This document shows, one piece after another, positions 8,113 to 30,049 of a stretch of DNA of 32,000 nt. The notes beneath the pieces were generated by a model. The model was given only the letters and a program-made list of their open reading frames with translations, did no database searches and was not told where the DNA came from. Numbering within the stretch: the first letter of the stretch is position 1; the number at the start of each line of letters is the position of its first letter. The DNA is taken from NCBI RefSeq assembly GCF_000025505.1, contig NC_013849.1, positions 360,001-392,000 of the forward strand. The letters run 5' to 3'. Origin of the DNA: Ferroglobus placidus DSM 10642 (GTDB lineage: Archaea; Halobacteriota; Archaeoglobi; Archaeoglobales; Archaeoglobaceae). The position numbers were made by a program, and so were the translations under genes.

Positions 8113-8124
8113 GAAAGTACTATT

Positions 8125-9042: not shown

Positions 9043-9672
9043 ATGAAAAAGTTCACGAAATACGTGCTCGCGGAATTCGGAGGGAAGGTGATAACAAGAG
9101 AAGAATTTGAGAAAGCCTGTAGAAGGTTTGGAGAAAATACTGAAAGAGCGGTAAACTTCATGATATCATACGGTTATCTTGTAAGAATTCTGCGAGGGCT
9201 TTATTACGTGAAAACTCCCGAAGAGTTCAGCATGGGAAAAAGCGTCGATACATTGAAAATAATCTCTCTCGGAATGAACAGGTTGGGAGTAGAGTGGTAT
9301 TTCGGTCTGAATACTGCTCTCAGGCTCAACGGAGTTACGCACGAGTTTTCTCCGGTGATACACGTGATCAGCGATTCCATCTACAGGCCGAAGACAATAG
9401 AGATCAACAGAGAGGATGTAAAGTTCATAAAGCTGAAAAAGAATCTCTTCGGTTTTGGAGTTGTTGAGAAAAATTCGATGAAATACTCGGATCTTGAGAA
9501 AACACTCCTCGACATGGTTTATCTCTCGAGATACCGATCTACGCCCGAGGAAAGGATTGTGGCAACCCTGATAGAATACGGAAAGAAAGCCAGAAAGAAA
9601 AAGCTTGCTGAATATCTAAAGCGCTATCCGAAAAGTGTTGAGAGAGTGGTGAAAAATGCCGGACTTGTCTGA
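9043..9672 (+). CDS. abiEi: AbiEi-like antitoxin/transcriptional regulator (type IV TA)
   Basis: 209 aa with an N-terminal wHTH and an RGLYYV motif. It overlaps and precedes an AbiEii-type gene, which is the canonical arrangement. Confidence 0.7.
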   Translation: MKKFTKYVLAEFGGKVITREEFEKACRRFGENTERAVNFMISYGYLVRILRGLYYVKTPEEFSMGKSVDTLKIISLGMNRLGVEWYFGLNTALRLNGVTHEFSPVIHVISDSIYRPKTIEINREDVKFIKLKKNLFGFGVVEKNSMKYSDLEKTLLDMVYLSRYRSTPEERIVATLIEYGKKARKKKLAEYLKRYPKSVERVVKNAGLV

Positions 9673-10567: not shown

Positions 10568-10622
10568 ATATCAGTTTTTCATAATTAGATTTTGTAATTT
10601 TGCATCTTGCTGTGTGGGGAAA

Positions 10623-10683
10623 GGGGCTCTGTTGAGCGTCATTTCAGTTCGGCCTGGGCGCCAATTGCATTTTACAGAGCCTC
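10623..10683. promoter_or_regulatory. 10-bp-stem inverted repeat enclosing a 41-nt loop immediately upstream of the integrase
   Basis: GGGGCTCTGT (10623-10632) pairs with ACAGAGCCTC (10674-10683): 9 Watson-Crick pairs plus 1 G-T. Confidence 0.4.
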
Positions 10684-10692
10684 CCCCAATTT

Positions 10693-11904: not shown

Positions 11905-11944
11905 AGACAGTTAAAAGAAACTAACAGGGATTGAAAAGTATAGT

Positions 11945-12160
11945 TCATTCTTTAGCTCTCTTTATAAATTCTTCTGCAAGCTCGCTGAAAACATCCTTTA
12001 CCCACTTTCTTTCCTCATCAAAGCTGCTCTTTTCTTCGAACTTATGTCCGTTCCTGCACCTGAAGATTCTTCTGAAAACTCCTTTGCTGAAATCGGGCTC
12101 GATGTTGCTAAGAATCGCATCCTCTCCGCAGAAAGGGCATTTCCTGAATATTCCGGGCAT
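11945..12160 (-). CDS. small zinc-ribbon protein
   Basis: MPGIFRKCPFCGEDAILSN..FRCRNGHKFEE (CxxC...CxxxH). The track ORF extends to 12214, but the ATG at 12160 gives a sensible N-terminus. Confidence 0.5.
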   Translation of the reverse strand: MPGIFRKCPFCGEDAILSNIEPDFSKGVFRRIFRCRNGHKFEEKSSFDEERKWVKDVFSELAEEFIKRAKE

Positions 12161-12258
12161 GATCCTATTTCTTGTAATGCATGAAGAAAAATAGAAAGAG
12201 AGAAATTCTTGCAAACTCGGGAATAATGGTTATAAATTTACAGTTTTTTAGTGTTTTT

Positions 12259-13179
12259 ATGATTCCAGAAACCGAGATAAACAGCTTTATAAATACAATA
12301 CTTTCTGAAAGACCCTTTTTGAACACCTTTAAAATACCAACTTTACAGATTTATCATAAAGGTGGGTTAATAAAGCTAGGTACTCGCTCAGTGTATGTTG
12401 ATTTTCCACGAGGAGTTTATGAATTGCAAAGATTTTTACTAGAACTCTGTAATCGTGTAATAGAGTCAGCAGGTCATGATTATCAAAATGGAACAGAGAT
12501 GATAAAATCGCAAAAAGCCGATCCAAAGAGCGATATAAATTTTCTAACATCCATTCTTGAAAAATTTAGGATCAAGTGGAGTATAACTTTTCTTCCATAT
12601 TATAAGAAGCCAGTCATCAAATTCTATGTAAATGGATATTTCAAGTCACTCTGGCCATTCAAACTAAAATCGTTCGTTGAAGAACTCAACCAAGGAAGAG
12701 ATAGTCCCAAGGAAATTTACGAAAAAGCTAGGACACTCACACCCGAATTTTTGAGGGTATCTGAAGCTGCAAAAAGAGAGACACTTTCAAAAATACCATC
12801 TTGCTTTGAGCTGCTGTTTAATTCCAGTCTCAGCCCATACTCTGAAATTCAGGGATTGGTAAAGCTCATGGAGAGATTGTACAGGATAGCTGAAAAAGTA
12901 GAAGACATGTTATTCCAATACCTTATTCTAGAATCTATTGCGGATTTAAAAACATCCCTGCATAACCTCATGAGAGTACTTGAAAGTGGCTATGCATTTG
13001 GATGCTATCCTCTACTAAGAAAATTTTTGACAAGCTTTTCATATGCTATTTTTCTGCATTCTTTTTACATGTATATGCAGGAGCACAAAACTCCAGAAGA
13101 ATTATACGAAAGTGATAAGGAAGATTTAAGAGAAGCTCTCTTGAACTATGCCGCAAATTTTCTTCAGAATGGAAACTGA
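12259..13179 (+). CDS. hypothetical protein (N-terminal part of a probably split gene)
   Basis: AT-rich. A TATA-like TTATAAAT at 12230-12237 lies about 22 nt upstream of the ATG at 12259, consistent with a leaderless-type start. The track ORF begins at 12181, inside the divergent promoter. The C-terminal third is helical. No confident family. Confidence 0.55.
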   Translation: MIPETEINSFINTILSERPFLNTFKIPTLQIYHKGGLIKLGTRSVYVDFPRGVYELQRFLLELCNRVIESAGHDYQNGTEMIKSQKADPKSDINFLTSILEKFRIKWSITFLPYYKKPVIKFYVNGYFKSLWPFKLKSFVEELNQGRDSPKEIYEKARTLTPEFLRVSEAAKRETLSKIPSCFELLFNSSLSPYSEIQGLVKLMERLYRIAEKVEDMLFQYLILESIADLKTSLHNLMRVLESGYAFGCYPLLRKFLTSFSYAIFLHSFYMYMQEHKTPEELYESDKEDLREALLNYAANFLQNGN

Positions 13180-13199
13180 TTCAGTCTTATACTTATTTT

Positions 13200-13604
13200 G
13201 TGCTGGTGAAAAGCATAGAACCTATTTCCAAAGAGAAAATTCTACCAATCCAGGATTTAAGGACGTTTTTCAATGTTAGAGAAAAGATTCTGAAAGAAGA
13301 CCGTGTAATTCAGCCTAGGGATAAGTTCCTAATAGAACTTTTAGATCTTCTAGCTGTGAAACCTGCAAATGTTTTCGAAATTAACGATATAAACACTATA
13401 AACATTAGAAGTAAGGAAATTTGGGAGGAATACAAGAAACTAAGCGAAGTTGTTCATACGCCAATATTCATTGATTTTCCTCCGTTTTCATCAATTCTCG
13501 AGTACATAGGAATTGTTCATCATTTGAGGAAAGTAAGATACAATCTTGAGAAAGTGATAACCAACTATAGTAAGCTAATAAAAAGAAAGAAAAGAAAACA
13601 ATAA
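13200..13604 (+). CDS. hypothetical protein (probable C-terminal part of the split gene)
   Basis: Starts only at a GTG with no RBS. Its frame is open upstream to 13119, overlapping the end of 12259..13179. Contains YKKLSEVVHTP. Lys-rich tail. Confidence 0.45.
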   Translation: MLVKSIEPISKEKILPIQDLRTFFNVREKILKEDRVIQPRDKFLIELLDLLAVKPANVFEINDINTINIRSKEIWEEYKKLSEVVHTPIFIDFPPFSSILEYIGIVHHLRKVRYNLEKVITNYSKLIKRKKRKQ

Positions 13605-13609
13605 TTTAT

Positions 13610-13909
13610 TTACCTTCTCTCAATTTTAAACCTCAGAAGTCCTTCAAATCCCAGAGCTAGCACCTCCGCTCTGAACTTCTCGTTCTCATACGTTTCCGAG
13701 TTGAAGGTGTGTGGTATCGTTCTGTATTCTCCGAAAAGGTCTTTCAGCACGTCTTTGACGGAGTTCCCTACCTCACTGAAAGACAGCTCACCAATTCTGT
13801 ATCTCTCTCCGTTCAGCTCGATTTCACCCCGGTCTATGTCATAGACTATCCGTACCTCCCTGTTTTTTCCGATATAATCTCTGAGCAAATTTTTCAGCTC
13901 CATGATCAT
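13610..13909 (-). CDS. hypothetical protein
   Basis: 99-aa track ORF with host-like codon usage, divergent from the protease gene. No motif recognised. Confidence 0.5.
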   Translation of the reverse strand: MIMELKNLLRDYIGKNREVRIVYDIDRGEIELNGERYRIGELSFSEVGNSVKDVLKDLFGEYRTIPHTFNSETYENEKFRAEVLALGFEGLLRFKIERR

Positions 13910-14025
13910 TTTCCTGTTCGAATTCGCTTATAACGGAAAGGAGAGTGGATTGCAAAATTGCAAAGCAAATTTTGTCAGCAATAAAAATTTTAAATTTTCC
14001 TTCATAATCTCATGAGGTGACCGGT

Positions 14026-14724
14026 ATGAAGAGAATTTTGCTGGCCCTGCTGCTGGTAGTCTTTGCCATTTCTATCGCGCATGCAGCGAGCAAGCCACAG
14101 CTGGAGAAAATAACGTTTGTTCACTACATTAAGGGCTCTCAGGGAAAACCAACATGGGATGAGAACGTAACGGATTACAAGCTAATTGCAGGAGGGATAA
14201 AGTGGAAGAGTCTGCCAATAAGGTACAGCATTTCACTGCATGGAAAACCGAGCAATCTCGATAACAACTTTGTTATCAGCGCGATAAATAACGCCTCGGA
14301 AACCTGGGATGAATATGTAGATGCGAACCTCTACGAGATGCAGAGCATAACAAACGAGCCTGTCATCTCCGGAGACGGCAATAACACGGTCGGCTGGGGT
14401 GTGCTTCCTGAAAATGTTATTGCCGTGACACATCTCTGGTACAATCCGGCAACAAAGGAAATAGTCGAGTTTGACATAGTTTTCAACACGCTCTATAAAT
14501 GGGGTAACGCGGATCCAGATAATGATGGAATAGCTGACAACCCTGACGTTATGGATCTGCAAAATATCGCAACTCATGAATTCGGCCACAACGGTCTTGA
14601 CGATCTAAGACCTCCGAAGGATTCGGAGCTGACGATGTACTACAAAAGCGATTACGGAGAGATAAAGAAGAGAACGCTTGGCATTGGAGACATTCTCGGA
14701 ATTCAGAAACTTTACGGTAGTTAG
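14026..14724 (+). CDS. secreted zinc metalloprotease (metzincin, matrixin/snapalysin-like)
   Basis: SD GAGGTGA at 14014-14020 and ATG at 14026. Signal peptide MKRILLALLLVVFAISIAHA. Zinc site HEFGHNGLDD (HExxHxxGxxD), followed by a Met-turn candidate SELTMYY. Confidence 0.8.
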   Translation: MKRILLALLLVVFAISIAHAASKPQLEKITFVHYIKGSQGKPTWDENVTDYKLIAGGIKWKSLPIRYSISLHGKPSNLDNNFVISAINNASETWDEYVDANLYEMQSITNEPVISGDGNNTVGWGVLPENVIAVTHLWYNPATKEIVEFDIVFNTLYKWGNADPDNDGIADNPDVMDLQNIATHEFGHNGLDDLRPPKDSELTMYYKSDYGEIKKRTLGIGDILGIQKLYGS

Positions 14725-14727
14725 TAA

Positions 14728-14754
14728 TTTTTTAACCCGATTTTTTATTTCTTT
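14728..14754 (+). terminator. oligo-T archaeal terminator candidate
   Basis: Two T6 runs (14728-14733, 14741-14746) lie directly after the protease stop codon. Confidence 0.4.
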
Positions 14755-14806
14755 GCAGCTCACTGCCTCTTCACAGTATTATTCTGTTTTCAAAAACAAG
14801 AAAAAC

Positions 14807-15364
14807 ATGGATATCATGAAACTCGCCCGCTTTCTCGAGGAAATGCAGTATTTTCCAGAGAACATATCCTTCAGGGATGACTGGCTGGGATGGAAGCTGG
14901 TGTACTGCGATGCGCTTCTCTACATGCACGAGAGCCAGAAAGATGTTGTGAAAAATCTTGCAAAACATGCAGCTGAGCACGAGAACCACAAGCTCGTTTT
15001 CAGAACATCGGGAAACGTATTCTGTGATTACGTCTATCTCTTCGTGAACGACAGCGAAAATCCAGAGCTACCGTATTTCATGCTGAACAGAAATGAGATT
15101 TTCGAGTATTACGATGACTTTCTCGAAAGACTTTCTATTAAGGGAAACAGCATCGTGTTCAGAACGGATAGCGGGATTTACAGGTTTGACGATTATGAAT
15201 GGCTAATCGAGGAATATGGAGATGATGCCCGTGACGTCTTTCTGGAAGAGGAGTTCTGGCGCTACATCTATTCAGGACACTTTGATCCGCTTCCGCTCAC
15301 GGAGGAAGTGGATGTGTGGAGAAGGAAGGTAATTAGAGTTCACAGGGATGTGCCAAGAGTTTGA
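14807..15364 (+). CDS. hypothetical acidic protein
   Basis: The ATG at 14807 (MDIMKLARFLEEM..) is in frame with track ORF 14678..15364. The upstream part of that ORF overlaps the terminator region. No motif recognised. Confidence 0.55.
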   Translation: MDIMKLARFLEEMQYFPENISFRDDWLGWKLVYCDALLYMHESQKDVVKNLAKHAAEHENHKLVFRTSGNVFCDYVYLFVNDSENPELPYFMLNRNEIFEYYDDFLERLSIKGNSIVFRTDSGIYRFDDYEWLIEEYGDDARDVFLEEEFWRYIYSGHFDPLPLTEEVDVWRRKVIRVHRDVPRV

Positions 15365-15483
15365 TCGTTTCTTCCCTTCTTAGCATTTTTCAGCAAGTTT
15401 ATCTCTTTTCAGGATGAGCTGACGGTTTTCTGCAATTTTCTCTCCCTTCCTGTTTTTCTTTCAGCTCACACAGGATAAAAAAC

Positions 15484-15699
15484 ATGAAAGCAAATCCGTT
15501 TTCCGCACTTAGAAGAATGAGCACGGAAGCAGCTGTTTTTGCAGCAATAACACTGCTTCTCTCCACTCTTGCTGTGATGCAGGCACTTGCTGGAAATCTC
15601 ATAAATGCCATGCAACTCGAGATATTTGCTCTTCTCTCCCTTCAGCTATACCATTTCGAGATAACGAAGAGCATGATTAGAAGGGTGAGAAAGGAATGA
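15484..15699 (+). CDS. small membrane protein (1 TM)
   Basis: 71 aa with TM segment AAVFAAITLLLSTLAVMQALAG. Its stop overlaps the next start (ATGA at 15696). Confidence 0.55.
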   Translation: MKANPFSALRRMSTEAAVFAAITLLLSTLAVMQALAGNLINAMQLEIFALLSLQLYHFEITKSMIRRVRKE

Positions 15700-15884
15700 A
15701 GGCACTTCTTGCATTTGCCACGGGCCTTTTCCTCGGATTCATTGCAAGAACACTCGCAAGAAGTTTTAAAGGCACGGTGCTTTTGCTTGCCGCCATTATA
15801 GCTGTTACAGGGATACTCACAGAGAGAACAGAGCTGAGCCTGATAAGCATCCCCCTGATGCTCCTCGCGAGAAAGGGTGGTTGA
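15696..15884 (+). CDS. small membrane protein (2 TM)
   Basis: 62 aa with ALLAFATGLFLGFIARTLA and VLLLAAIIAVTGILT. Translationally coupled on both sides. Confidence 0.55.
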   Translation: MKALLAFATGLFLGFIARTLARSFKGTVLLLAAIIAVTGILTERTELSLISIPLMLLARKGG

Positions 15885-16671
15885 TATGATCGATTCGCTC
15901 AGAAGATTTCTCAGCGGTGTATGCAGACTCTCTCCGGAATTCATGCGGGAAATCAAGGTAGGTGAGCGCGTCAGGCTTAAGCCTGGAGAGATTTCGAATG
16001 ATTATCTTTTAAGCACAGCCTACAGGCTGCTCTGGAAGAGGAAGGAAATGTACTCGATTGAAATACGGAAAGGTGATGAAATAAACTGCTTTGCATCTGC
16101 AGGGAATACGGAAGCTCTTGAATATCTGCTGAGAAGACTCATGGCCGTGTATACCTTTCCAGAACTTGAGCCTGCATGCATTCAGCTTCCTGAAAAAGAA
16201 TGCTATGTCTCTGCTGGCTATGTTAAGCTATCAGGAACTCCCTACATGCTTCACGATCCCGAGCAGAATATCCTGACTCATGCCCTTGCTGCAGCGGATA
16301 ATGTGTTTGTGCAGTTTCTTTTCAAACCCGAGAAGATCGTTCTTGAAAGACTTGGTTATGAAAGCCCTGTTTTCAAGCTTCGTGTTTCTGTTGCAAGCTT
16401 TTCAGAGAGCTGGAAGGAGGCTGTGAATTCCTGTAAGCGTGTACTCGAGAGCTTCACAGTTCTGAGTTCTGCATATTCATCCCTCGTGCCAGTAATTCCA
16501 AGAGTGCCGAATTCGTGCGTTCTGCTCAGAAGCATGCTGGAGAGAAGGTTTCTTCCCGGTGATAACTTTAGAGTTACAGCTGAGGAGCTCGCCATGATCA
16601 CGAAAATTCCCGGTGATATTGTTGATAATCGGCACAGCAGGGAAAAGAAAACTGAAGATACCGATAAGTGA
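15877..16671 (+). CDS. hypothetical protein, possibly the N-terminal domain of the downstream ATPase
   Basis: 264 aa (GTG at 15877 or ATG at 15886). It ends ..VTAEELAMITKIPGD.. and overlaps the next ORF by 59 nt in a different frame. Confidence 0.6.
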   Translation: MVDMIDSLRRFLSGVCRLSPEFMREIKVGERVRLKPGEISNDYLLSTAYRLLWKRKEMYSIEIRKGDEINCFASAGNTEALEYLLRRLMAVYTFPELEPACIQLPEKECYVSAGYVKLSGTPYMLHDPEQNILTHALAAADNVFVQFLFKPEKIVLERLGYESPVFKLRVSVASFSESWKEAVNSCKRVLESFTVLSSAYSSLVPVIPRVPNSCVLLRSMLERRFLPGDNFRVTAEELAMITKIPGDIVDNRHSREKKTEDTDK

Positions 16672-18376
16672 TATCTTGCAGCACCAGCACGTGATAGGCG
16701 CGACAGGTACGGGAAAGAGCACTTTTCTGGCAAATCAGGCTGTGCAGGCGTTTGAAGAGGGAGCATGCTGCGTTGTGATAGATCCGCACGGGGATCTCGC
16801 TCTTGATATCCTGAGAGCTGTTAATCCGGGGGATCTTGGTAAGGTGTACTTTCTCGATCCCGTCAGAGTGCGCTTTTCTCTAAACCCGTTAGAGCTTCCC
16901 GCGGAGTGCCACAGCAGAGAAATAGCCGTTGAGAGAATGATAGGCGAGATCACCGAATTTTTCAGAAAATTCTATGGCAGGCAGTACTGGGGGCCGTCGC
17001 TGAACAGGATATTTCAGGAAGGGCTGAGAGCTCTCTACGAGAAAGATGACGCCCCCACGCTTGGTGATCTCTACGATCTCGTGAGCGGAAGAATAAGGCA
17101 TGAGGAATTTGAAAAAGAGCTGAAAAAGCTGCCGAGGGGAAGGACAGATGCCGTGCTCAACAAGCTCGCACCGTTTGTCAGGAACAGGTTTCTCTCCAGA
17201 ATTCTATGCTCAAAACCGGCAAGCGTCAGGATTGAAGAGCTCATGAAGCCGGGGAGCCTGGTGATTTTCAGGCTTTCCAGAGGAGAGATTTCTGAAGCTG
17301 TTTCATCCCTTCTCGGCTCCGCGATAATAACGCAGACGTGGCTCCATGCAATCTCCCGAGAGAGCAGGTTTCTGGTAATTCTTTTCATTGACGAGCTCCA
17401 GATATTCTCGCATCTTGAAACTCTCTGCAGCATTCTCTCGGAAGGAAGAAAGTACGCTATCTCGCTTGTTGCAGCCCATCAGCACCTGAAACAGCTTCCG
17501 GAAAAACTTCTCAACGATCTTCTTGGAAACGCAGGAATGAGGGTTGTTTTCAGGGTTTCCGGAGAGGATGCGAGAACTCTCGCAAGGGCTCTGGGAAATG
17601 AAGACATTTCTGAAAGACTTATCTCTCTTTCGGATGGAAGAGCAGTTGTGTGGATAAGGGGAAGCTTCAGGGAAGTGGAGAGGATTGTGGAGATTTCAAC
17701 ACTCCCGCTGATTTACAGAAATCCGTTTTCCGAACATGCCACAGATAGAATGCGGAAGCTTTTTGAAATTCCCGAAAGAGAGGAGGAATTTGCTGATCCT
17801 GAGATTTACGAGCTTCTCCACATTTTGCTAGAGAAAAGCATGAGCATGAGCGAGATATTTGAGAAATACAGGAAAATCCTTCCGGGAGTGAAAGCGAGCT
17901 ATGTCTCTGCTCTTGTTGAAAGAGTTGAAAGGCTCGGATTTGTTAAGAGGAATGTCGTGAAGCAGAGAAGGGGAAGGCCAAAGATTGTGGTTGAGCTGAG
18001 CGAGAAAGCTGTTGAACTTCTTGATCTAAGGCACACCTCGAGAAGAGCCGGAGGTGAGCTTCATTCGAAACTCGCAAAGATCTGCGCTGAAAGGTTAAGA
18101 AAAGATGGATGTGCCGTGATATTTCCTCCTCAGGCTGGAAGAGAAGAACAGCCGGACATGATAGCTTATAAAAGATCTCCTGATGGATGGGAAGAGATTG
18201 CGGTTGAAATTGAAACTAGAGCGGATCACCCTGAGCAGGTGATGAGAAACTACAAGAAGAATATCCGAAAGGGAAGGAAAGTAATTTTCGTTGTTCCGGA
18301 CGAGAGAATTGCTGAAAGAGTGAGAAAAATTCTTGGGGATAGGGATTACACTGTTGAAGTGACTGAATATTTTTAA
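16613..18376 (+). CDS. HerA/FtsK/T4CP-superfamily (DUF87-like) ATPase fused to wHTH and PD-(D/E)xK-like nuclease domains
   Basis: Walker A GATGTGKST, then VVIDPHGD, Walker B LVILFIDELQIF and VAAHQHLKQL. A MarR-like wHTH (SEIFEKYRKILPGVKASYVSALVERVERLGFVKR) follows. The C-terminal PDMIAY..EIAVEIET is a restriction-endonuclease-like motif. It has a GTG start only, and its frame opens at 16598. Confidence 0.8.
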   Translation: MILLIIGTAGKRKLKIPISDILQHQHVIGATGTGKSTFLANQAVQAFEEGACCVVIDPHGDLALDILRAVNPGDLGKVYFLDPVRVRFSLNPLELPAECHSREIAVERMIGEITEFFRKFYGRQYWGPSLNRIFQEGLRALYEKDDAPTLGDLYDLVSGRIRHEEFEKELKKLPRGRTDAVLNKLAPFVRNRFLSRILCSKPASVRIEELMKPGSLVIFRLSRGEISEAVSSLLGSAIITQTWLHAISRESRFLVILFIDELQIFSHLETLCSILSEGRKYAISLVAAHQHLKQLPEKLLNDLLGNAGMRVVFRVSGEDARTLARALGNEDISERLISLSDGRAVVWIRGSFREVERIVEISTLPLIYRNPFSEHATDRMRKLFEIPEREEEFADPEIYELLHILLEKSMSMSEIFEKYRKILPGVKASYVSALVERVERLGFVKRNVVKQRRGRPKIVVELSEKAVELLDLRHTSRRAGGELHSKLAKICAERLRKDGCAVIFPPQAGREEQPDMIAYKRSPDGWEEIAVEIETRADHPEQVMRNYKKNIRKGRKVIFVVPDERIAERVRKILGDRDYTVEVTEYF

Positions 18377-18410
18377 GTTCAAAAAATAAAGTAATAGTAA
18401 GGTGCTGAAC

Positions 18411-18695
18411 ATGGAGGGTATAGAGAAGATTAAGAACGAAATAATCCCTGTGCTGAAAAAGTATGATGTGAAGAGAGCAAGTCTATTTGGCTCTATTGTC
18501 AGAAAAGAGATGACAGAAAAAAGCGATATAGATCTGCTTGTCGAATTCGAAGGAAAGAAAAGCCTTCTAGATCTCGCAGAACTGAAAATTGAATTAGAGG
18601 AGAAACTTAAGAGAAAGGTCGATGTCCTCACGTATAAATCAATACATCCCTTACTGAGAGAAAGAATTCTGAGTGAAAAGGTGGATATCCTGTGA
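18411..18695 (+). CDS. mntA: MNT-type nucleotidyltransferase (antitoxin of HEPN/MNT pair)
   Basis: [22 protein letters not shown] (GS..R....SDxDLLV). SD AAGGTG lies 8 nt upstream of the ATG at 18411. The track ORF starts at the GTG at 18402. Confidence 0.85.
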
Positions 18696-19045
18696 AGAAG
18701 GATATTAGAACTTTTCTGCTACACATTCTCGAAAGCATAGAGATTATAGAAAAGCATACGCACGGTGTAAATAGGGAAGAGTTTATGGAAGATGTGAAAA
18801 CACAGGATGCCGTGTTAAGAAGGCTTGAAATTATAGGTGAAGCTGTAAAAAATATTCCGCAAGATTTCAGGGAAAAGTATCCTGAAATACCTTGGAAAGC
18901 GATTGCCGGAACAAGAGATATTCTGATTCACGAATACTTTGGAGTTGATCTCGATCTCGTATGGGAGATAATTGAAAGGGATCTGCCAGAGCTTAAAGAA
19001 AAAATAGAAAGAATTCTGAAGGATTTAGAGTTTTCTGAGAAGTAA
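18692..19045 (+). CDS. hepT: DUF86 HEPN-domain RNase (toxin of HEPN/MNT pair)
   Basis: The Rx4-6H motif is in [14 protein letters not shown]. It has a 4-nt GTGA overlap with the MNT gene. Confidence 0.85.
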
Positions 19046-19178
19046 AGCACAACTATCGGAAAAAAGAGAATAAAAGAGAGCTGTTCTGGAAAAAAGAAAG
19101 TTGCTGAGAGAAATGGTTATACTATTAGTTGGGTTTTAGCATGCAAGTCTTTTTAAATGTCTCCAGCTAAATTTTATT

Positions 19179-19562
19179 GTGGCTGAAATGCTCGAAATGG
19201 AAAGGGAAACACTCGAAAGGTTCAAAAAGAAAGTTCTGAACAAGCTCGAGGATAGGGTTCATGCTATAGTAATTTACGGTTCTCTTGCAAGAGGAACATA
19301 CACGAAGGATAGCGACATAGATATTCTCGTGATAGGTGAAAACAAAGCGGACTGGGAAAGGGTTTCGAGAATAGCCTACGAGATCGATTATGAAAACGGC
19401 TTCAGGACGTTTATAACTACGATGTTCCTCACGAAGAACGAATTCGAGCAGAGGTTGAAAGCAGGAGATCCCTTTATTCACAACGTGCTGAGGGAGGGTG
19501 TGGTTCTTTATGACACGGGTGTCTATGAAGGATTTCGCAAGAGCATGCTTGAAGCTCGCTGA
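19179..19562 (+). CDS. MNT-type nucleotidyltransferase (second pair)
   Basis: VIYGSLARGTYTKDSDIDILVIG. Confidence 0.85.
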   Translation: MAEMLEMERETLERFKKKVLNKLEDRVHAIVIYGSLARGTYTKDSDIDILVIGENKADWERVSRIAYEIDYENGFRTFITTMFLTKNEFEQRLKAGDPFIHNVLREGVVLYDTGVYEGFRKSMLEAR

Positions 19563-19902
19563 AGATTTTGAAGATACAAAACCTGTGCTTGAACATTCAA
19601 GACTGATAACTGCCGTGAACTGCGCCTATTATGCTATGTTTCACGCGGCTCAGGCAATTCTCGCGTTTAACGGCATAGGGCCATCGAGAACTCACAGGGA
19701 TCTGAGAGAGGTTTTCGGAAAGGAGATCATTCTTAAAGGTCTTGCTGACAGAGAGCTTGGAAGGGTGTTGAGCAGAGCTTTTGAGCTGAGGCAGGCAAGC
19801 AGTTATGAAGTTTATGCCCACTTTGGCGAGGATGTTGTGAGGGAGATTGGGAAGAAAAGTGGGGGATTCGTTAAAAGGATAAAGGAATTCATGTCAGAGT
19901 AG
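19525..19902 (+). CDS. HEPN-domain protein (second pair)
   Basis: All-helical. AYYAMFHAAQAIL and LRQASSYE are typical of PF05168-type HEPN proteins. The ATG at 19525 is preferred over the track GTG at 19498. It overlaps the MNT gene. Confidence 0.75.
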   Translation: MKDFARACLKLAEDFEDTKPVLEHSRLITAVNCAYYAMFHAAQAILAFNGIGPSRTHRDLREVFGKEIILKGLADRELGRVLSRAFELRQASSYEVYAHFGEDVVREIGKKSGGFVKRIKEFMSE

Positions 19903-20075: not shown

Positions 20076-22001
20076 ATGTTTAAACTGGTGGTACCAAGTA
20101 TGATTCCAGAGATTTCACGAATATTAATGAGTTACAAAAAATCTTTGGATAAATCGAGAAGTAGGTACGAATCAATGTATAAAGAAAGATCTAAAAATGT
20201 AGAACGTTTTTATAATTCTTTTCTTAAGAACTTAATTATTACTCTTCATAAAGAAATTAATGATCCTGAAAAAAGAAGAGATGTTATTAGATTAATAAAA
20301 AATTTTTTCAGAAATGATAAAATAAAATTTATAGCTGTTGATGGAACTTGCTACAAAAACCAATTAGTAGATTATATGATCTTTTTTGGCGCATCTTATG
20401 CTATTAGAGGAACTATAGATCTAAACACATACCCGCCAAAAATTAAATATGAAAAATTTGCAGCAGAAGAAGATGTTAGCATGGTTGCATATGTTCCAAT
20501 TCCCTTTGCTGAGTTGGGGGAGGTTCTAGAGGAGAATTATCAATTTGTGAGTTCTGATGAGACAAGAATCGACCTCTCATCTATACATGTTCTTTTAATG
20601 CAATTAGCGGAGATCTATTTGCTTTACTCATTAGCAAAAAGGAGTGCATTGGAAGCACCTAAACTTCTATTGTGGGATCACTCTATTAGTAGTATTCTAG
20701 CAAGTACTGATGTGGGAATTATAACCCAAGAAGGAACTCCAAAAATAAAGCTCATTGGCTTTCATGAAACAGGTAGAGCTCTTTTAATTCAGGATGTAAT
20801 TATCGCGTATTCCCGTCCATGGAATAGTGAGTTAGATATACCAACGCCAAAGGAGTTTAGAATGTATAACTACGTTATTAGGAAAGCTTTTGAAAAAGGT
20901 AAAGAAGGTATAACGTTAGAAGAATTATCTCAACAATCTGGTGTCTCCAAGGACAGAATTTTGGAGAAATTAAAAGAGAGTAAAAAACTTGGGAAATATA
21001 TAATAAAAGATAAAAATGATATATCTTCAACCATCGAAGAGCAACCAATCCTTATTTTTGATAATGATAAAATCTTCTTTAACGAATTTTTCAGAGGATC
21101 ATGGAGGTTTGTAGTGGGAATCTTTGAGTATATCTGTGAGAAATTATTCAAAGAAAAGGATCCAGAGGCATTGATATATCGAAAATATACACCTGAGGGT
21201 GAAAAAGAATGCTGGCTTACACCAGATGATCTACGTTTTCTAATCGCAGTAGGCTTAAGAGCACTGATAGAAGAATGTTGGAAACAGGGAATATTATTCG
21301 TGGGTGTTGTAAAAGATTCGTCCACAAAGTATTTCAGTAAAAATTACATTGGGATATGCAAACATCTTGGAATATATAACTTCGATGATTCTTTAGCAAC
21401 ATTACCTTTACCATGGACTGACAGAACTCTTTTGGAGTTATTGCCTTATATTGACGAAAAAATTGAAGCACCGTGGAGTACAATAGAATTCGATTCCGTA
21501 TTCATGCAGCTTCACTTAGTGCAAACCCCAGACGGTAAGATTGAAATTCATGGTGTAAGAGGTGAAGCTACGAATCCTGAAAGAGTAGTTTTAAGGTCTT
21601 TAGCTCAATTTTACATAAATAGAAATCTCTACACTCCCTTAACAGGACATGTAATATTTATTGATAGAATAGCATTTCCTAGCGAAGATAAAAAATATTA
21701 CGGAGATAATAGACTCATTATTGAAACTAGAAGGCTTGGAAAAATAAAACCAGTCTTCTTCAAAGATAAAAATGAGAACAATATAATTCAGAAAATAATG
21801 CTTATTTTATTATCAGAGTTAACAAAAAACCTTTATCCAGAAGTTATTGGCTATCCAGATCCTTTACACAAAGCCGATTGGGGTGCAAAAAGTATATTGA
21901 AAAAAGTCAAACCTATTATTGACTCTGGAGAAATATCATTCAGAGCGCGCCCATTGAGAAAAACTCTCAGGGAACTAAGAGAAGAAGTAAGAAGATCGTA
22001 G
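20076..22001 (+). CDS. NurA-like nuclease with an embedded wHTH domain (641 aa)
   Basis: Motifs in NurA order: KFIAVDGTCY (DGS/T), MQLAEIYLL (E), LLLWDHSISS (hhhhD), LFVGVVKDSSTKYF (K-S) and GYPDPLHKADWGAK (YP..L..AD..A). The central segment KEGITLEELSQQSGVSKDRILEKLKESKKLGKYII is a clear HTH/wHTH. Strongly AT-rich codon usage. Confidence 0.7.
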   Translation: MFKLVVPSMIPEISRILMSYKKSLDKSRSRYESMYKERSKNVERFYNSFLKNLIITLHKEINDPEKRRDVIRLIKNFFRNDKIKFIAVDGTCYKNQLVDYMIFFGASYAIRGTIDLNTYPPKIKYEKFAAEEDVSMVAYVPIPFAELGEVLEENYQFVSSDETRIDLSSIHVLLMQLAEIYLLYSLAKRSALEAPKLLLWDHSISSILASTDVGIITQEGTPKIKLIGFHETGRALLIQDVIIAYSRPWNSELDIPTPKEFRMYNYVIRKAFEKGKEGITLEELSQQSGVSKDRILEKLKESKKLGKYIIKDKNDISSTIEEQPILIFDNDKIFFNEFFRGSWRFVVGIFEYICEKLFKEKDPEALIYRKYTPEGEKECWLTPDDLRFLIAVGLRALIEECWKQGILFVGVVKDSSTKYFSKNYIGICKHLGIYNFDDSLATLPLPWTDRTLLELLPYIDEKIEAPWSTIEFDSVFMQLHLVQTPDGKIEIHGVRGEATNPERVVLRSLAQFYINRNLYTPLTGHVIFIDRIAFPSEDKKYYGDNRLIIETRRLGKIKPVFFKDKNENNIIQKIMLILLSELTKNLYPEVIGYPDPLHKADWGAKSILKKVKPIIDSGEISFRARPLRKTLRELREEVRRS

Positions 22002-22016
22002 CAGAGGTGTAGAGTA

Positions 22017-23288
22017 ATGGAGATATTTAGGTTAGAAGGTTTTAATGGAAGGCTCTTAGCGGCGGAACCTGATGAACGAAGTAGATATAACTTTACTATA
22101 TGGTTTCCATATACTCGTGAACTTGTAAATGATATTCAAGATGGAGATCTTCTTGCAGTACCAAATTTCCAAAGTGACAGGGAACGGCCAGTATATAGTA
22201 TCTTAAAAGTTACAAATGTTCTTCCAAAGCATTTTGCATTACGAGGAAAGGAAGATACGAAGTCTTATCCTGGATATGTGTTAGAAGCAGCAAAAAATAT
22301 TGCAGCTTCGTGGGTTATTCAAGAAAGTGAACCATTAGAGGATACTACAATAATAGAGGTAGAAGCAATACCCACAAACTTGCAATTTAGGTTAAATGAA
22401 CAGAACAATCCAATTATAGAGGAAGAGAAGAGTATGCCAATGGTTGGAGAAGAAGTAAAATTACTATCCCCAGAATTTGTAATGAAAATCTTAAACAGTG
22501 GTATAAAATTTGGTTATGAGGAAATTATAGAGATAGGTCATTTAATTAGAGATAAAGAGATAAAGATTTACGTGAGAGTTGAAGATCTTGTAAGGACACA
22601 TTTCGGGATATTTGGTTATACTGGTGTAGGAAAAAGTAATCTTCTAAGCACAATTATCAGAAAACTTCTAACTGAAACAATTAAAATAGATGAAAAGCAG
22701 TTGCCTAAAAAAGAAATAAGAGAGCGAGAAAATATTAAAATCCTACTTTTTGATCTTATGGATGAATATATAAGTTTATTGATAGATCTGTTAGTGAATA
22801 ACAATCTTGATTCAAAAATAGTTTACATTGACCGAAGATCACTACCTAAAGCGGTAATCGATTATTTAAAAGGAAATGAGACTTTGATTAAAGCGATACA
22901 TGCTTTTTTGAGACAAATGTATATCCCAAAGGGATTATTAGACTGCAAGGATAAATATTATGAAAGAATAAGAGAAATTCTCGAGAAGGATAGAATAAAG
23001 ATTTGGGAGGAAGAATTTGAAATTAAGACTATCGATGAACTTATAGAAAAGATTTGGCCTGAAGTAATAGGAGATCTAAGATCCACTACAAAAATATCAA
23101 CTCTAGAAAGAGTAAAAGAGGATATACTCTCAGATGTAACTGGAAATGAGTTAACTCCAGAAAATTTGGATAAGATACTATCTAAACTTGGGGAAAGTAG
23201 TGTTTTTGGCTATCCACAACCTCAAAGTGTGATAAACTTACGAAAACAAAAAGATGGTAATGCCTCAGTAATGTTTATATTCAATTAG
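22017..23288 (+). CDS. HerA-like (DUF87) ATPase, 3'-truncated by IS insertion
   Basis: SD GAGGTG at 22004-22009. N-terminal barrel-like domain, then THFGIFGYTGVGKSNLL (Walker A) and ILLFDLMDEY (the hhhDphgEY motif that follows Walker A in HerA). No Walker B (hhhhDEAH) appears before the ORF runs into the IS inverted repeat at 23256. The last 10 codons (GNASVMFIFN) and the stop are IS sequence. Confidence 0.75.
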   Translation: MEIFRLEGFNGRLLAAEPDERSRYNFTIWFPYTRELVNDIQDGDLLAVPNFQSDRERPVYSILKVTNVLPKHFALRGKEDTKSYPGYVLEAAKNIAASWVIQESEPLEDTTIIEVEAIPTNLQFRLNEQNNPIIEEEKSMPMVGEEVKLLSPEFVMKILNSGIKFGYEEIIEIGHLIRDKEIKIYVRVEDLVRTHFGIFGYTGVGKSNLLSTIIRKLLTETIKIDEKQLPKKEIRERENIKILLFDLMDEYISLLIDLLVNNNLDSKIVYIDRRSLPKAVIDYLKGNETLIKAIHAFLRQMYIPKGLLDCKDKYYERIREILEKDRIKIWEEEFEIKTIDELIEKIWPEVIGDLRSTTKISTLERVKEDILSDVTGNELTPENLDKILSKLGESSVFGYPQPQSVINLRKQKDGNASVMFIFN

Positions 23289-23303
23289 TTGGATAAATCG
23301 GTG

Positions 23304-23588
23304 ATGATGTGTCCGCATTGCAAATCGATAAAAACTGTGAAAATGGGCTGTTATTACACGAAATCTGGTGAGAGGAGGCAGAGATACAAATGCAAGAGCT
23401 GCGGGAGAACTTTCGTTTTGAATCCGATAAAGCCGAGGAATTATCCCGAGGAATTTAAGGAGATGGTAGTTAGAGCTGTTGTGAAGGAGGGTGTAGGGAT
23501 AAGACAAGCGAGCAGAATTTTCAAGCTTTCTCCTAACACTGTGACAGCTTGGGTAAGAGAATTTTCTAAAAAAAGACCTGAGAAATGA
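23304..23588 (+). CDS. insA: IS1 InsA-like protein (zinc finger + HTH)
   Basis: MMCPHCKS..YKCKSCGRTF (CxxC..CxxC), then an HTH (GIRQASRIFKLSPNTVTAWV). The track ORF starts at the TTG at 23289. Confidence 0.8.
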   Translation: MMCPHCKSIKTVKMGCYYTKSGERRQRYKCKSCGRTFVLNPIKPRNYPEEFKEMVVRAVVKEGVGIRQASRIFKLSPNTVTAWVREFSKKRPEK

Positions 23589-24003
23589 GATTAGATCGGA
23601 AAAGCCTGTTATCGAGTTAGATGAAGCTTGGAGTTTTGTTAAGAAAAAGGAAAACGAAATCTGGATTTGGATTGCTTTAGAGAGAAATTCCCGAAAAATA
23701 ATAAGTTATGCAATAGGAGATCGTTCTGTGGATACTTTCAAGAAATTGTGGGACGGAATTGGCGATGAAATAAAGCGGAAAGCAATTTTCTACACGGATC
23801 GCTGGGACGCTTATAATTTGATTCCTTACAGGCAGAGAATCGTAAGAAGAGGAGGAACGAACCACGTTGAAAGGTTATTCTTAACTCTGAGAAATGATAA
23901 TCCGAGATTCGCAAGAAAATCAATCAGATTCTCAAAATCCTCGGAAATGCTCGAAAATTCTTTTAAATTGTGGATTCATTACTATAATTTATCAACATTA
24001 TAG
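23557..24003 (+). CDS. insB: IS1 InsB-like DDE transposase domain (no own start; needs recoding from insA)
   Basis: The frame is open from 23557. It reads ELDEAWSFVKKKENEIWIWIALERNSRKIISYAIGDRS..FYTDRWDAY..TNHVERLFLTLR (D, D, E). The stop lies inside the right inverted repeat. The track lists only 23728..24003. Confidence 0.8.
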   Translation, partial: ENFLKKDLRNEIRSEKPVIELDEAWSFVKKKENEIWIWIALERNSRKIISYAIGDRSVDTFKKLWDGIGDEIKRKAIFYTDRWDAYNLIPYRQRIVRRGGTNHVERLFLTLRNDNPRFARKSIRFSKSSEMLENSFKLWIHYYNLSTL

Positions 24004-24083
24004 TGACACTACCGAAAATAATTTCGGGAAAAGACATGGTGTTTGTGTTAAAGTTTAGGATGACCGAAAAATTTAAATTCATT

Positions 24084-24110
24084 TAGGTAACCCTAATTTT
24101 GGGTTACCTA
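24084..24110. promoter_or_regulatory. perfect 10-7-10 palindrome (candidate metal-regulator operator) over the feoA promoter
   Basis: TAGGTAACCC-TAATTTT-GGGTTACCTA. A TATA-like TTTAAAT at 24072-24078 lies just upstream. SD AGAGGTG is at 24111-24117 and the feoA ATG is at 24123. Confidence 0.55.
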
Positions 24111-24122
24111 AGAGGTGCAAAA

Positions 24123-27049: not shown

Positions 27050-27091
27050 CATTTGTATTTGTATTTTTAGAATTGTATTCGCTCAAACCAG

Positions 27092-27165
27092 TAGCCCCGG
27101 CCGGATTCGAACCGGCGTCGCCGGATCCAGAGTCCGGCAGGATTGTCCTACTACCACACGGGGCT
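27092..27165 (-). tRNA. tRNA-Gln (anticodon CUG), weak D-stem
   Basis: Acceptor stem AGCCCCG/CGGGGCT. Anticodon arm CCGGA-CTCTGGA-TCCGG (U33, CTG, G37). T arm GCCGG-TTCGAAT-CCGGC. Discriminator A, with no encoded CCA. The D arm TGGT-AGTAGGACAA-TCCT has only two G-C pairs, flanked by T-T mismatches. Confidence 0.75.
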
Positions 27166-27220: not shown

Positions 27221-30049
27221 CTAATCCTCGCTCACATCCTCAATCCAGCGGATGCTCTCATTAAACTCAGCATCAATCTCCTCCTCTTCCCCTCCTTTTC
27301 CTCCAGCTCTCCCACCTCCTCTCCTGCCCTCTCCAAACATCTCCTTGAGCTCCTGCGTGACCTCCTTTTTCCCGTCCACGGTTATGAGGTAATATCCAGC
27401 CCCTCCCTTTGCAAACCTGACAACGGGGAAGTCGAAGTCCTCCGGAGGGAATATCAGAACCAGGCAGTCCTCCCCATACCTCGGTATGCTGTCCTTGAAC
27501 TCCTTTGCGGGGTCGAACTCGACCCTCTTCACAACCCACCCCCTGCTGCTTGCCTCACTGACAGTGCAGATGTAACCGTCTTTGCCGTAAAGCACCCCTC
27601 CCTTCTCATACGCCTCCTCATTCGTATGCTTGTTGACCCACAGCTTCCTGCCCATGCGGTCCCTCGCAACCTCATTCGTCTTGTAAAGCCCGTCCCTCCC
27701 CCTCATGTTCTCAACAACCTCTACAATGTGCTTTGCAATTGAGATGTATTCCCCAGCACTCTCTCCATGCCCGAGAACAGCGTAGATCAGGTAGTATCCT
27801 GCCTTGTAGGCTCTTGCAAGCTTCTTCAGCAGCATCCCCGGCCTTCTCTGCGTTGCCACCTCCACCTCAACCAGGATCCTGTCCTTTTTAAAGAGATTGT
27901 AGCATCTATCCCTCTCCTCTCCCTCTGGCGGGAGTTTCAGTACAAGATCTGGAACGTAGTTGTCCAACCCGGGCAGAGAAACACCACGCTTCGGAACCTC
28001 TACAATGTAGCCGAGAGACGTGAAGTACTCGTAGGCTCTGATGATCAGCCTTCTGTGGTCAACAAATCCATCCGTCACCTCCCCCAACTTATCCACCCAG
28101 AAGGCCTGCCTGATCCTGTCAAGATTTGGCACAACCACGCTTCTCCCGGAAGCCATATCCGTTTTCAGCTCAATGTATTCTCTGTCCGCATCCGCAGCTA
28201 TCTCTATGAAGCTGTCGTACTTCCTGTCATCAATCTTAACCCCCCTCTTCCTGCACTCCTCCATGAACGTCTGCCTGCTGACATCAACCCCCTTTATCGC
28301 CAGCACATACAGAACCTCAAGCAGCTCCCCAATTAACCCGGCCTTGCGCTGGATTGAGCAGATCTCCTTTATCTTAAGCAGAGCATCTGAAAGCTGCATC
28401 TCGCTCATCCTCTCAAGCCCGTATCTTTCAAGCGAGGCCCTTGCAACCTCCACTATCCCCTCTCTGCTCCTCAAAGGCTCTGATGGAGGATAGGTTTGAA
28501 TTACAAACGGGTCTGACAGCTGATTTCTCACCATAATGCGCACCATTGCTTTATACAGACCAAGAGACAGCATGTCCTCCACCCTCACACCCGGAAATCT
28601 TTTGATGAGTACGGATGCATCTGCGGGGTTCTGCGCGTTGAAGGCTATTATTGTTCCGCAGTTTGAATACACAGCCTCTCTCACCTTTGGAGAGAGCTGC
28701 GACGGGTACTGGGTTGCAACAATCAAACCAAGCCTGAATGCCCTTGCCTCAGAGAGAATCTCGTCAAAGGTGGAGCCCTCGAAAGCAAAGTTTGAGAACT
28801 CGTCAATGTAGAGGAAGAAGGGCTTTCTGTCTTCAGGTCTAAGCTTCACCCTCGACTTCGCAGCAGCCCATATCTTTGACAGGACAGTGGTTCCCACAAG
28901 CTGCATTATCGTTTCTCCAACCTCTCCCTTCGGAACCCTTACGAGGATTATCTTGTTCGTGTCTATCGCCTCCCTGAAGTCGAAGGAGGATTTTCTGTGG
29001 GTCACAATCTGCCTTGCCACCTTGTTCATCACCCAGTCGTTCAAACGCCTTATAACGGGCTCCATCACATCATCCTTCATCTCATTGACCTTGAGCAGGT
29101 ACTCCCTTATTATGGGGTCATCAACGCTCTCAGCAAACTTGTTCCTCACATCATCATCTGTGAGAAGAACGTAGAGGTCGAGGAAGGTTAGCTGATCCCT
29201 CTCACCAACCCTCTCGTTGAAGTCCAGCACTGCCCTTACAAGAGTCTCAAAAATTCTTCCGAATCGCTCACCCCATATCTGCGTTTGCTGCCTCATCAAC
29301 GCAACAAGATCTGCAACAACAACCTCCTTCATCGCATTGATCTGTCCCTCATCCATGTTCTTTCTGGGGAGCTCCAGAAAGTTCAACCCGACAACCTTGT
29401 CGTAGTTTGCCGGATCGATGAGTATAACGTCCTTAATCCTGTGGTCGGGAATCCTCATCAAAACCTCCTCAATGGCATCACCCTTGGGATCGATGAAGCA
29501 CAAGCCGTAGCCGTTCTGGATGTCCTGCACGATCATGTTCACAAGGGTCGTTGTTTTTCCCGTCCCGGTTGCACCGCACACAAACATGTGCCGGAAGCGA
29601 TCCTCAAGGGCGACCGAGATGTGTCTAATACCCCTTATGTTGTCCCTGTAAACGCCAATATACTGCACACCGGGGTTTGGAGGGGGAAGGTTGATTTTCT
29701 CCCTGCCGAACTCCTGCACCACCCTCATCTCTGACCCTGCACCCGATCCGGTTACGGTTACAGCCCCGCAACCTGCACCTGCCCCATTTACTCCACCCAC
29801 AACTTCTGCAGACACGTCTCTGTCCCCAACATCTCTGCCCCCTCCAGCCTCAGAACCTGCGCGCCCTACACTGCCCACGCTGTTCCTCAGGTCCGGGAAA
29901 AGATCGTACTTGCTCTCCACAGCCTTTACCACATCGCTAAACCTGATTCCTTTTCCCACTCCCTTCTTTTTATTCTCCTCCCTCCCTCCTCCTTCTTTTC
30001 CCTTTTCCTTTATCTTTTTAAACACGTTCAGCATGATCCTCACCTTCAC
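27221..30049 (-). CDS. large HerA/FtsK/T4CP-superfamily ATPase with wHTH-like and PD-(D/E)xK-like domains plus a C-terminal extension (942 aa)
   Basis: Gly/Ala-rich low-complexity N-terminus. Walker A CGATGTGKTTTL, then LCFIDPKGD, Walker B FFLYIDEFSNF and IVATQYPSQL. Later VPDLVLKL..ILVEVEVA (nuclease-like). It shares its architecture with 16613..18376. Confidence 0.8.
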   Translation of the reverse strand: MKVRIMLNVFKKIKEKGKEGGGREENKKKGVGKGIRFSDVVKAVESKYDLFPDLRNSVGSVGRAGSEAGGGRDVGDRDVSAEVVGGVNGAGAGCGAVTVTGSGAGSEMRVVQEFGREKINLPPPNPGVQYIGVYRDNIRGIRHISVALEDRFRHMFVCGATGTGKTTTLVNMIVQDIQNGYGLCFIDPKGDAIEEVLMRIPDHRIKDVILIDPANYDKVVGLNFLELPRKNMDEGQINAMKEVVVADLVALMRQQTQIWGERFGRIFETLVRAVLDFNERVGERDQLTFLDLYVLLTDDDVRNKFAESVDDPIIREYLLKVNEMKDDVMEPVIRRLNDWVMNKVARQIVTHRKSSFDFREAIDTNKIILVRVPKGEVGETIMQLVGTTVLSKIWAAAKSRVKLRPEDRKPFFLYIDEFSNFAFEGSTFDEILSEARAFRLGLIVATQYPSQLSPKVREAVYSNCGTIIAFNAQNPADASVLIKRFPGVRVEDMLSLGLYKAMVRIMVRNQLSDPFVIQTYPPSEPLRSREGIVEVARASLERYGLERMSEMQLSDALLKIKEICSIQRKAGLIGELLEVLYVLAIKGVDVSRQTFMEECRKRGVKIDDRKYDSFIEIAADADREYIELKTDMASGRSVVVPNLDRIRQAFWVDKLGEVTDGFVDHRRLIIRAYEYFTSLGYIVEVPKRGVSLPGLDNYVPDLVLKLPPEGEERDRCYNLFKKDRILVEVEVATQRRPGMLLKKLARAYKAGYYLIYAVLGHGESAGEYISIAKHIVEVVENMRGRDGLYKTNEVARDRMGRKLWVNKHTNEEAYEKGGVLYGKDGYICTVSEASSRGWVVKRVEFDPAKEFKDSIPRYGEDCLVLIFPPEDFDFPVVRFAKGGAGYYLITVDGKKEVTQELKEMFGEGRRGGGRAGGKGGEEEEIDAEFNESIRWIEDVSED

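Follow-up and report, generated by a model that had tools for sequence, protein, structure and literature searches.

A NurA-fold nuclease gene and a truncated herA in Ferroglobus placidus: probable remnant of a mobile cassette with a DpdA-like transglycosylase

Two adjacent genes of Ferroglobus placidus DSM 10642, here called A and B, lie within a 32-kb stretch of its genome (contig NC_013849.1, positions 360,001–392,000; "the window" below always means this whole stretch of 32,000 nucleotides) and appear to encode a NurA-fold nuclease and the front part of a HerA-family ATPase. We consider it probable, at roughly 60%, that the pair is one half, nuclease and motor, of a cassette of three genes and four domains that is horizontally mobile and, in F. 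placidus, dead. The complete cassette would consist of a NurA-fold nuclease carrying a winged helix-turn-helix (wHTH) domain (~610 aa), a hexameric HerA-family ATPase (~610 aa), a DpdA-like transglycosylase and a DUF6884 domain. In related loci the nuclease, the motor and the transglycosylase/DpdC-like pair travel together as a small unit in changing contexts, and a role in defence is the most plausible one for the pair. An initial annotation of the window had read the two genes as a stand-alone and uncharacterised archaeal defence cassette, a description of which some parts stand and others do not.

The evidence for such a unit comes from 69 loci with homologues of A in the genomes of GTDB species, which are patchily distributed, share 35–50% identity and are bacterial in 51 cases and archaeal in 18, so that the cassette is not restricted to archaea. 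A homologue of B directly follows A in 59 of these loci, and in eight of the other ten the contig ends within 1.4 kb of A. Clustering of the neighbours of all 69 loci produced one further conserved family, a TGT-like TIM-barrel protein with a DUF6884 domain. Partners could be assessed in the 46 loci with at least 1.3 kb of flank on both sides: the TGT-like (DpdA-like) gene is directly adjacent in 36, lies 3–7 kb away in four (some of these may be ordinary tgt genes), is replaced by a C5 DNA methylase in one Asgard locus and is missing from five. DUF6884 is fused to the transglycosylase or encoded beside the A–B pair in nearly all of the 36 adjacent loci, and the DpdA-like gene often overlaps the pair or lies within a few bases of it, with gene order and the state of fusion differing between loci. 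In the archaeal loci most closely related to that of the window, a TGT–DUF6884 fusion of 400–480 aa directly follows B; in a second arrangement a DUF6884 gene of ~150 aa precedes A and a TGT-like gene of ~400 aa follows B; in a third, a fusion in the reverse order (~575 aa) precedes A. The closest intact relative (L079) encodes A, B and the transglycosylase fusion as proteins of 632, 628 and 405 aa, its A being 72% identical to that of the window, and Methanolobus tindarius and Methanococcus maripaludis have the cassette arranged as in this relative.

The surroundings of the cassette, on the other hand, are unrelated between loci: 135 neighbours contain 181 Pfam families, among them scattered integrases, DarT, GajB-like helicases, a resolvase and SIR2 with ORC. 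With a neighbour census this heterogeneous, a further conserved partner gene is not supported. The patchy distribution, the rarity, the unrelated flanks and the deviant GC content (see below) all support a reading in terms of defence and mobility.

The adjacency counts also bear on the claim that the pair stands alone, which they contradict for most of the assessable loci. It would still be conceivable that NurA and HerA form a two-gene defence module by themselves and that the transglycosylase is an optional accessory, as in the five loci where A and B occur without an adjacent marking gene and by the example of the two-gene Sir2-HerA and DUF4297-HerA defence systems, which exist and are structural neighbours of B. 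We regard this as unlikely, since direct adjacency of the DpdA-like gene in 36 of 46 loci speaks for a functional link, a DNA methylase takes its place in one further locus, and the window copy could not work as a two-gene module because its HerA lacks Walker B.

Several loci show variants of the arrangement. In the Asgard archaeon 'Harpocratesius repetitus' (L068, 13971–15146) a C5 cytosine DNA methylase (Pfam 9.7e-61) takes the place of the DpdA-like gene after the NurA–HerA pair, which suggests that the restriction pair can combine with different marking enzymes. In a Desulfotomaculum sp. (L036, 2507–5566) TGT-like and DUF6884 genes come directly after A, the HerA gene that would separate them being absent; the locus is a natural variant or else a further decayed copy. 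Loci of Latescibacteria (L045–L055) have a UvrD-type helicase after the HerA gene (e.g., L055 13703–15871; PADLOC GajB-like, 6.8e-43), which may be an extra component of this subgroup. In one Methanococcus maripaludis genome (L078, GCA_013761055.1) an intact cassette made up of DUF6884, A, B and a 341-aa gene adjoins a resolvase, an N6/N4 DNA methylase and virus- or plasmid-like genes (T26-6p-type domains); with such neighbours it is probably carried by an integrated element, in a methanogen that is open to genetic work.

The transglycosylase family is closer to a DNA-modifying enzyme than to tRNA-modifying ones: a search of the PDB with its profile gave Salmonella DpdA (7ui4) at 3.2e-27, as against 1.7e-12 for ArcTGT and ~0.03 for bacterial TGT. 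The fusion protein of Latescibacteria passes the NCBIfam DpdA equivalog cut-off (351 vs 200 bits) and matches the PADLOC DpdA model at 2e-98, while the DUF6884 part matches Pfam YaaA/PF03883 (down to 3.7e-10) as well as the PADLOC models DpdC (7.5e-7) and PDC-M57A. No DpdB or DpdD-K genes are conserved around the related cassettes, and DndB-like genes occur in two of the 135 neighbours. These four domains could in principle serve DNA repair or base surveillance, the transglycosylase and DUF6884 excising or exchanging damaged guanines and NurA–HerA processing the intermediates, the more so as the DUF6884 member YfjM is among reported DNA-lesion binders and has been modelled flipping a base, and the related protein YaaA is linked to oxidative stress (PMC11701544). 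Such a function is distinctly unlikely for a cassette that is mobile, rare, variable in its flanks and foreign in composition, in which a C5 methylase substitution in one locus fits marking, and whose transglycosylase has its nearest characterised relative in a restriction-modification enzyme.

Under the reading that we favour, that of a compact marking and restriction cassette, the transglycosylase and DUF6884 would, as Dpd and TdpABC suggest by analogy, put a 7-deazaguanine base in the place of guanines in host DNA, the preQ0 precursor already being made for archaeosine or queuosine. A HerA ring, to whose barrel face a NurA dimer is bound, would then load on unmarked DNA, translocate along it and degrade it, and the wHTH domain may help to read or hold the DNA. 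That this amounts to an undescribed system of ~5 kb, in which a DpdA-family transglycosylase and DUF6884 mark self and the wHTH-NurA–HerA pair destroys DNA that is not marked, is a tentative proposal to which we would give slightly less than even odds. The methylase substitution in the Asgard locus fits A–B as a restriction module that pairs with various marking enzymes, and the fact that F. placidus has lost motor and marking gene together, described below, fits the logic of restriction-modification. We rate as new the putative combination of Dpd-type marking with a Tdp-type HerA/NurA restriction arm, of which the window locus would be a degraded member. As to the claim that the cassette is uncharacterised, it is borne out in so far as no paper linking NurA with a TGT/DpdA enzyme or with DUF6884 was found in the full-text literature (subscription literature lay outside the search), but not for the HerA clade, for which PADLOC has a model already ('HerA, Type III coevolved').

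The NurA assignment of A needed a fold search, since direct sequence detection yielded nothing significant: the window protein has no significant match in Pfam, NCBIfam, PADLOC or PDB sequences, and the profile of its family reached no solved structure in a sequence search of the PDB, canonical NurA included. The Pfam NurA model (PF09376) gives matches below threshold (E ≤ 1) in 24 of 34 homologues, the best at 1.9e-4, and one of ten rescanned homologues scores exactly at the 21-bit cut-off; of the profile searches that had been proposed as a check, the one for NurA failed for the window protein, whereas that for DUF87 succeeded for B. The NurA matches in the homologues are colinear but split, residues ~75–193 corresponding to profile positions 2–100 and residues ~361–422 to positions 120–166, with weak matches to RuvB_C wHTH and other HTH families of Pfam between both halves. 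An AlphaFold2 model of A built on the 34-member alignment was confident (predicted local distance difference test, pLDDT, 85.8; predicted template-modelling score 0.88), and the top ten PDB matches obtained with it in Foldseek were all NurA (probability 1.00, E 4e-9 to 2e-6), from Thermococcus kodakarensis, Pyrococcus furiosus and Sulfolobus solfataricus, so that the structure prediction asked for by the initial annotation supported the NurA reading. The TM-scores against these structures are low (0.25–0.5) because of the extra domains in A. In the model, the insert has the topology H263–277, E278–279, H281–288, H292–301, E326–329, E332–335 (DSSP; H, helix; E, strand). The idea of a NurA nuclease with an inserted wHTH is thus supported by the predicted fold and by the split Pfam matches.

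The ordered motifs by which NurA had originally been recognised, AVDGT (D89), E179, LLLWD (D201), VVKDSS (K413-D414-S415) and YPDPLHKAD (593–601), are all present and fall on invariant columns of the 34-sequence alignment, which has 79 such columns, including D89, E179, D201, K413-D414-S415 and Y593-D601. The putative catalytic residues D89, E179, D201, D414, H598 and D601 are invariant in all 34 sequences and lie inside segments aligned to the NurA profile. The family has more than 300 matches at ≥40% identity and forms 380 clusters at 50% identity among 1.84 billion representatives. The length of 641 aa and the HTH insert, which had been pointed out as unusual, are both real but typical of the whole family, whose members measure ~600–630 aa, and no local oddity. 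Gene A looks intact: of 103 highly conserved columns it deviates in just two, a number that falls within the family's usual range. In one public assembly (P0001, Logan collection) it is called from a later start, skipping 20076–20333 and giving 555 aa; the 641-aa start at 20076 is supported by homologue matches that begin at residues 1–13.

By its profile matches and predicted fold, the product of B is a HerA-family ATPase, although an incomplete one. It matches Pfam DUF87 (PF01935) at 7.7e-18 (profile positions 1–155 of 220), the PADLOC HerA model named above at 1.9e-37 (positions 5–277 of 532) and several NCBIfam HerA models; the PADLOC check proposed initially was thus positive for B, but no model matches A. 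Its structural model (pLDDT 83) has an all-beta N-terminal domain (a beta-barrel), and the top 20 Foldseek matches are all HerA. The Walker A and hhhDxxxEY motifs ascribed to it are there, as GYTGVGKSN and LLFDLMDEY, and are invariant across the B family. All profile matches of the window protein, however, end about half-way along the models, and the native part of the gene ends at 23255 (codon 413), immediately ahead of FIFDEAD, the invariant segment of Walker B. The protein keeps the beta-barrel at its N-terminus, the Walker A motif and a helical insert; Walker B, the arginine-rich RRGRKFG, GIATQR and the C-terminal domain, present in the intact homologues, are missing, and with them the whole C-terminal third of the protein, ~200 residues being gone in addition to Walker B and the arginine-rich segment. 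Nearly all intact B partners are 591–663 aa long, and tblastn found the rest of herA neither after the insertion sequence (IS) that follows B nor elsewhere in the window. The C-terminal 'VMFIFN' of the open reading frame (ORF), which MAFFT aligned to FIFDEAD, was rejected as a candidate Walker B since its codons lie inside the IS. In short, the second gene was rightly called HerA-like, but an IS cuts its ORF before Walker B, and the 423-aa 'DUF87' protein ADC64617.1 should carry a truncated flag in annotation.

The limits of this IS1-family element are fixed by identical copies elsewhere and by inverted repeats of 24 nt (23256–23279 and 23990–24013), between which an InsA-like ORF (23304–23588) and a DDE_Tnp_IS1 segment (23728–24003; Pfam) are found. 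Metagenome and Logan assemblies (L071–L076) contain copies that are 99.9–100% identical over exactly 23256–24013 and lie in a different genomic setting. As the element starts at 23256, ORF B takes its last ten codons and its stop (23256–23288) from IS sequence. The other copy is flanked by an 8-bp target duplication, ACTTTTTC, whereas the window copy has none, and beside the other copy neither the rest of herA nor a DpdA-like gene was found. The lack of a target duplication together with the lack of a herA remainder points to an IS-associated deletion and not to a simple insertion. No TGT/DpdA-like sequence was detected in the window either (tblastn), and the window copy of the cassette is a defunct remnant with only the nuclease gene intact. 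The IS and an adjacent deletion would have removed HerA from codon 414 onward plus the whole modification gene, and to lose motor and modification gene together in a single event is something that restriction-modification logic would tolerate. The element looks recently active in the F. placidus lineage given its near-identical copies elsewhere, one of them with a target duplication. As a pseudogenised remnant, the locus illustrates that a single step by an IS can put such a system out of action.

A number of points weigh against the compact marking and restriction cassette as proposed here. Most of the transglycosylase partners reach 33–36 bits against the 200-bit DpdA equivalog cut-off, and being so far below it they could have a different substrate; DpdB is absent from the cassettes, though Salmonella DpdA needs it. 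The five loci without an adjacent marking gene, all or mostly from Armatimonadota, have housekeeping neighbours, e.g., MutS and IleRS, and the pair in such loci may serve repair or have its partner encoded elsewhere. No homologue was found on plasmids, phages or IMG/VR contigs. Gene A, being free of decay, might keep some function alone. The search for the missing genes covered the 32-kb window of the F. placidus genome, and the rest of that genome may hold a second copy of them. Finally, the modified base, the self/non-self logic and the anti-virus effect are all things that we infer. The conserved 276-aa gene that comes next in the Armatimonadota-type loci is an HpaI-type aldolase and probably just reflects synteny.

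The fold of the two proteins raises the question of whether the pair could be a paralogue of the archaeal HerA–NurA end-resection machinery and act in the repair of double-strand breaks, not in defence. The closest solved structures of both proteins are those of the T. kodakarensis HerA–NurA resection complex, and some bacterial loci adjoin MutS or RecQ. We nevertheless hold this to be very unlikely: as the initial annotation had remarked, there is no linkage to mre11/rad50, no such gene having been found among the window ORFs scanned or in the related contexts examined, the family is patchy and rare and has a foreign composition in the window, the pair is linked to a DNA-modifying enzyme, the profile of A does not reach canonical NurA by sequence, and disruption of the pair by an IS is tolerated in a viable organism. 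A CRISPR type III accessory HerA–NurA pair of the 'type III coevolved' kind, known from Thermoproteales and elsewhere (PMC3396285, PMC6546367) and brought to mind by the best PADLOC model of B, which an intact relative matches over its full length at 8.8e-75, is hardly credible here, with no cas gene among the scanned window ORFs and no array in the window, a CRISPR-like array in one of 78 related loci, no Cas family among the commonest neighbour families, and an A family that barely reaches 1e-4 against Pfam NurA where CRISPR-linked Pyrobaculum NurA proteins match it at 1e-7 to 1e-16 (PMC3396285).

Both ORFs are present where they had initially been placed, separated by a short spacer that does contain a Shine-Dalgarno-like GAGGTG before the second gene, and they are flanked as described, by two toxin-antitoxin pairs upstream and the IS downstream (Table 1). 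The pair is compositionally foreign in the window, as had also been noticed: gene A has a GC content of 33.0% (25.9% at third codon positions, GC3) and gene B of 32.3% (GC3 22.5%), compared with 45.4% (GC3 44.1%) for feoB and 47.3% (GC3 49.3%) for the upstream VirD4-like ATPase.

Table 1. Features of the window around the A–B pair, numbered from the first nucleotide of the window
Feature	Position	Strand	Remarks
Long ORFs without Pfam match	2200–3915, 6877–8112, 12181–13179
GmrSD_N-like gene	4232–5299	−
Orc1/Cdc6	5702–6853	−
AbiEii	9656–10567
Tyrosine integrase	10693–11904
Matrixin-like peptidase	14017–14724
VirD4/TraG-like ATPase	16613–18376		C-terminal wHTH
Two adjacent MNT/HEPN-type toxin-antitoxin pairs	18402–19902		Polbeta NTase + HepT; NTase + HEPN; directly upstream of gene A
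Possible archaeal TATA box, TTTTATAA	20028–20035	+	41–48 nt 5' of gene A ATG; predicted from sequence
Gene A	20076–22001	+	641 aa; putative NurA-fold nuclease, apparently intact
Predicted wHTH insert within NurA domain of A	20862–21080	+	Residues ~263–335; model topology and weak Pfam matches
Shine-Dalgarno-like GAGGTG	22003–22008	+	Within 15-nt A–B spacer, 9–14 nt before gene B ATG
ORF B	22017–23288	+	423 aa; ADC64617.1, annotated 'DUF87'
Gene B, native part	22017–23255	+	First 413 codons of predicted HerA-family ATPase
IS1-family insertion sequence	23256–24013	+	758 bp
tRNA-Gln	27091–27165	−
TrwB/VirD4-like ATPase	27221–30049	−	942 aa
VirB4/AAA_10-like ATPase	30503–31999	−

The left part of the window (4232–18376) resembles an integrated mobile/defence island, and no att site or long direct repeats bounding an island were found in the window. 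The ATPases adjacent to tRNA-Gln represent a second conjugation-type gene set and may be another element integrated at a tRNA. Immediately before the first feoA-like ORF lies a near-perfect 14-nt palindrome (TTAGGTAACCCTAA / TTTGGGTTACCTAA; 24083–24111), a candidate operator that may serve an iron-responsive regulator.

Should the proposed reading of a marking and restriction cassette be correct, this would be the first 7-deazaguanine system with HerA–NurA as its restriction arm and also, to our knowledge, the first time that a Dpd-type modification of DNA is predicted for archaea, among them the cultivable methanogens M. tindarius and M. maripaludis. HerA–NurA would have been recruited more than once as a restriction arm, with phosphorothioate in Tdp and a deazaguanine-type base here, and 7-deazaguanine modification of DNA could work without DpdB and the large DpdD-K apparatus. 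Since modified DNA is predicted in archaea that can be cultivated and genetically manipulated, the idea is directly testable.

The HerA–NurA machine is best known from archaeal break repair. The canonical archaeal complexes (S. solfataricus, P. furiosus and T. kodakarensis; PDB 2ygk, 3tal and 9x1l–9x1p) are the best structural matches for A and B, and the present pair resembles them in its two adjacent and probably co-translated genes and in the N-terminal barrel and Walker A of B, to which Walker B and the arginine motifs are added in the intact relatives. In contrast with canonical NurA, A is ~200 aa longer, has a predicted wHTH inside its NurA domain and is unreachable by sequence profile, and the pair as a whole is island-borne, rare and patchy, tied to a DNA-modifying enzyme and not to mre11/rad50.

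TdpABC (An et al. 2025, Nat Chem Biol, as cited in PMC12914056) is a phosphorothioate system that includes TdpB, which we take to be NurA-like. The cassette is similar to it in outline (PDB 8wet, 8wfd), with one modification gene and a HerA-like/NurA-like restriction pair; the B profile matches TdpA at 1.9e-4, and A weakly matches one chain of the TdpAB complex by fold (E 0.17). The sequence similarity to TdpA and TdpB is marginal, and the modification enzyme is of the TGT/DpdA family with DUF6884 and not TdpC, so the cassette belongs to a different family.

Dpd is a 7-deazaguanine restriction-modification system made up of DpdA/B/C plus DpdD-K (PMC10164549, PMC5699537), in which Salmonella DpdA needs DpdB (PMC10164549) and DpdC, a PF03883/DUF328 protein, converts preQ0-DNA to 7-amido-7-deazaguanine (ADG)-DNA (PMC5699537, PMC12839542, PMC10164549). 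The partner gene in the related loci is DpdA-like and DUF6884 is a distant relative of DpdC (PF03883), but the cassette has no DpdB (ParB-like ATPase) or DpdD-K, its restriction half would be NurA plus HerA, and it measures ~5 kb as against ~20 kb for Dpd; of the Dpd-like part, nothing is left in the F. placidus window.

With the HerA/NurA pairs associated with CRISPR type III ('Type III coevolved', PMC6546367; nurA-csm6-herA, PMC3396285) the cassette shares a HerA clade that fits the PADLOC model over its full length, and differs from them in the lack of an array in 77 of the 78 related loci and in a nuclease of a different, longer NurA type. Sir2-HerA (Nezha) and DUF4297-HerA (PDB 8j4u, 8sub, 8ziq), which are neighbours of B in sequence as well as in structure, likewise combine a HerA-family ATPase with an effector in a mobile defence context; what sets the present cassette apart from them is that its effector appears to be a NurA-fold nuclease and that a DNA-modifying enzyme forms part of it.

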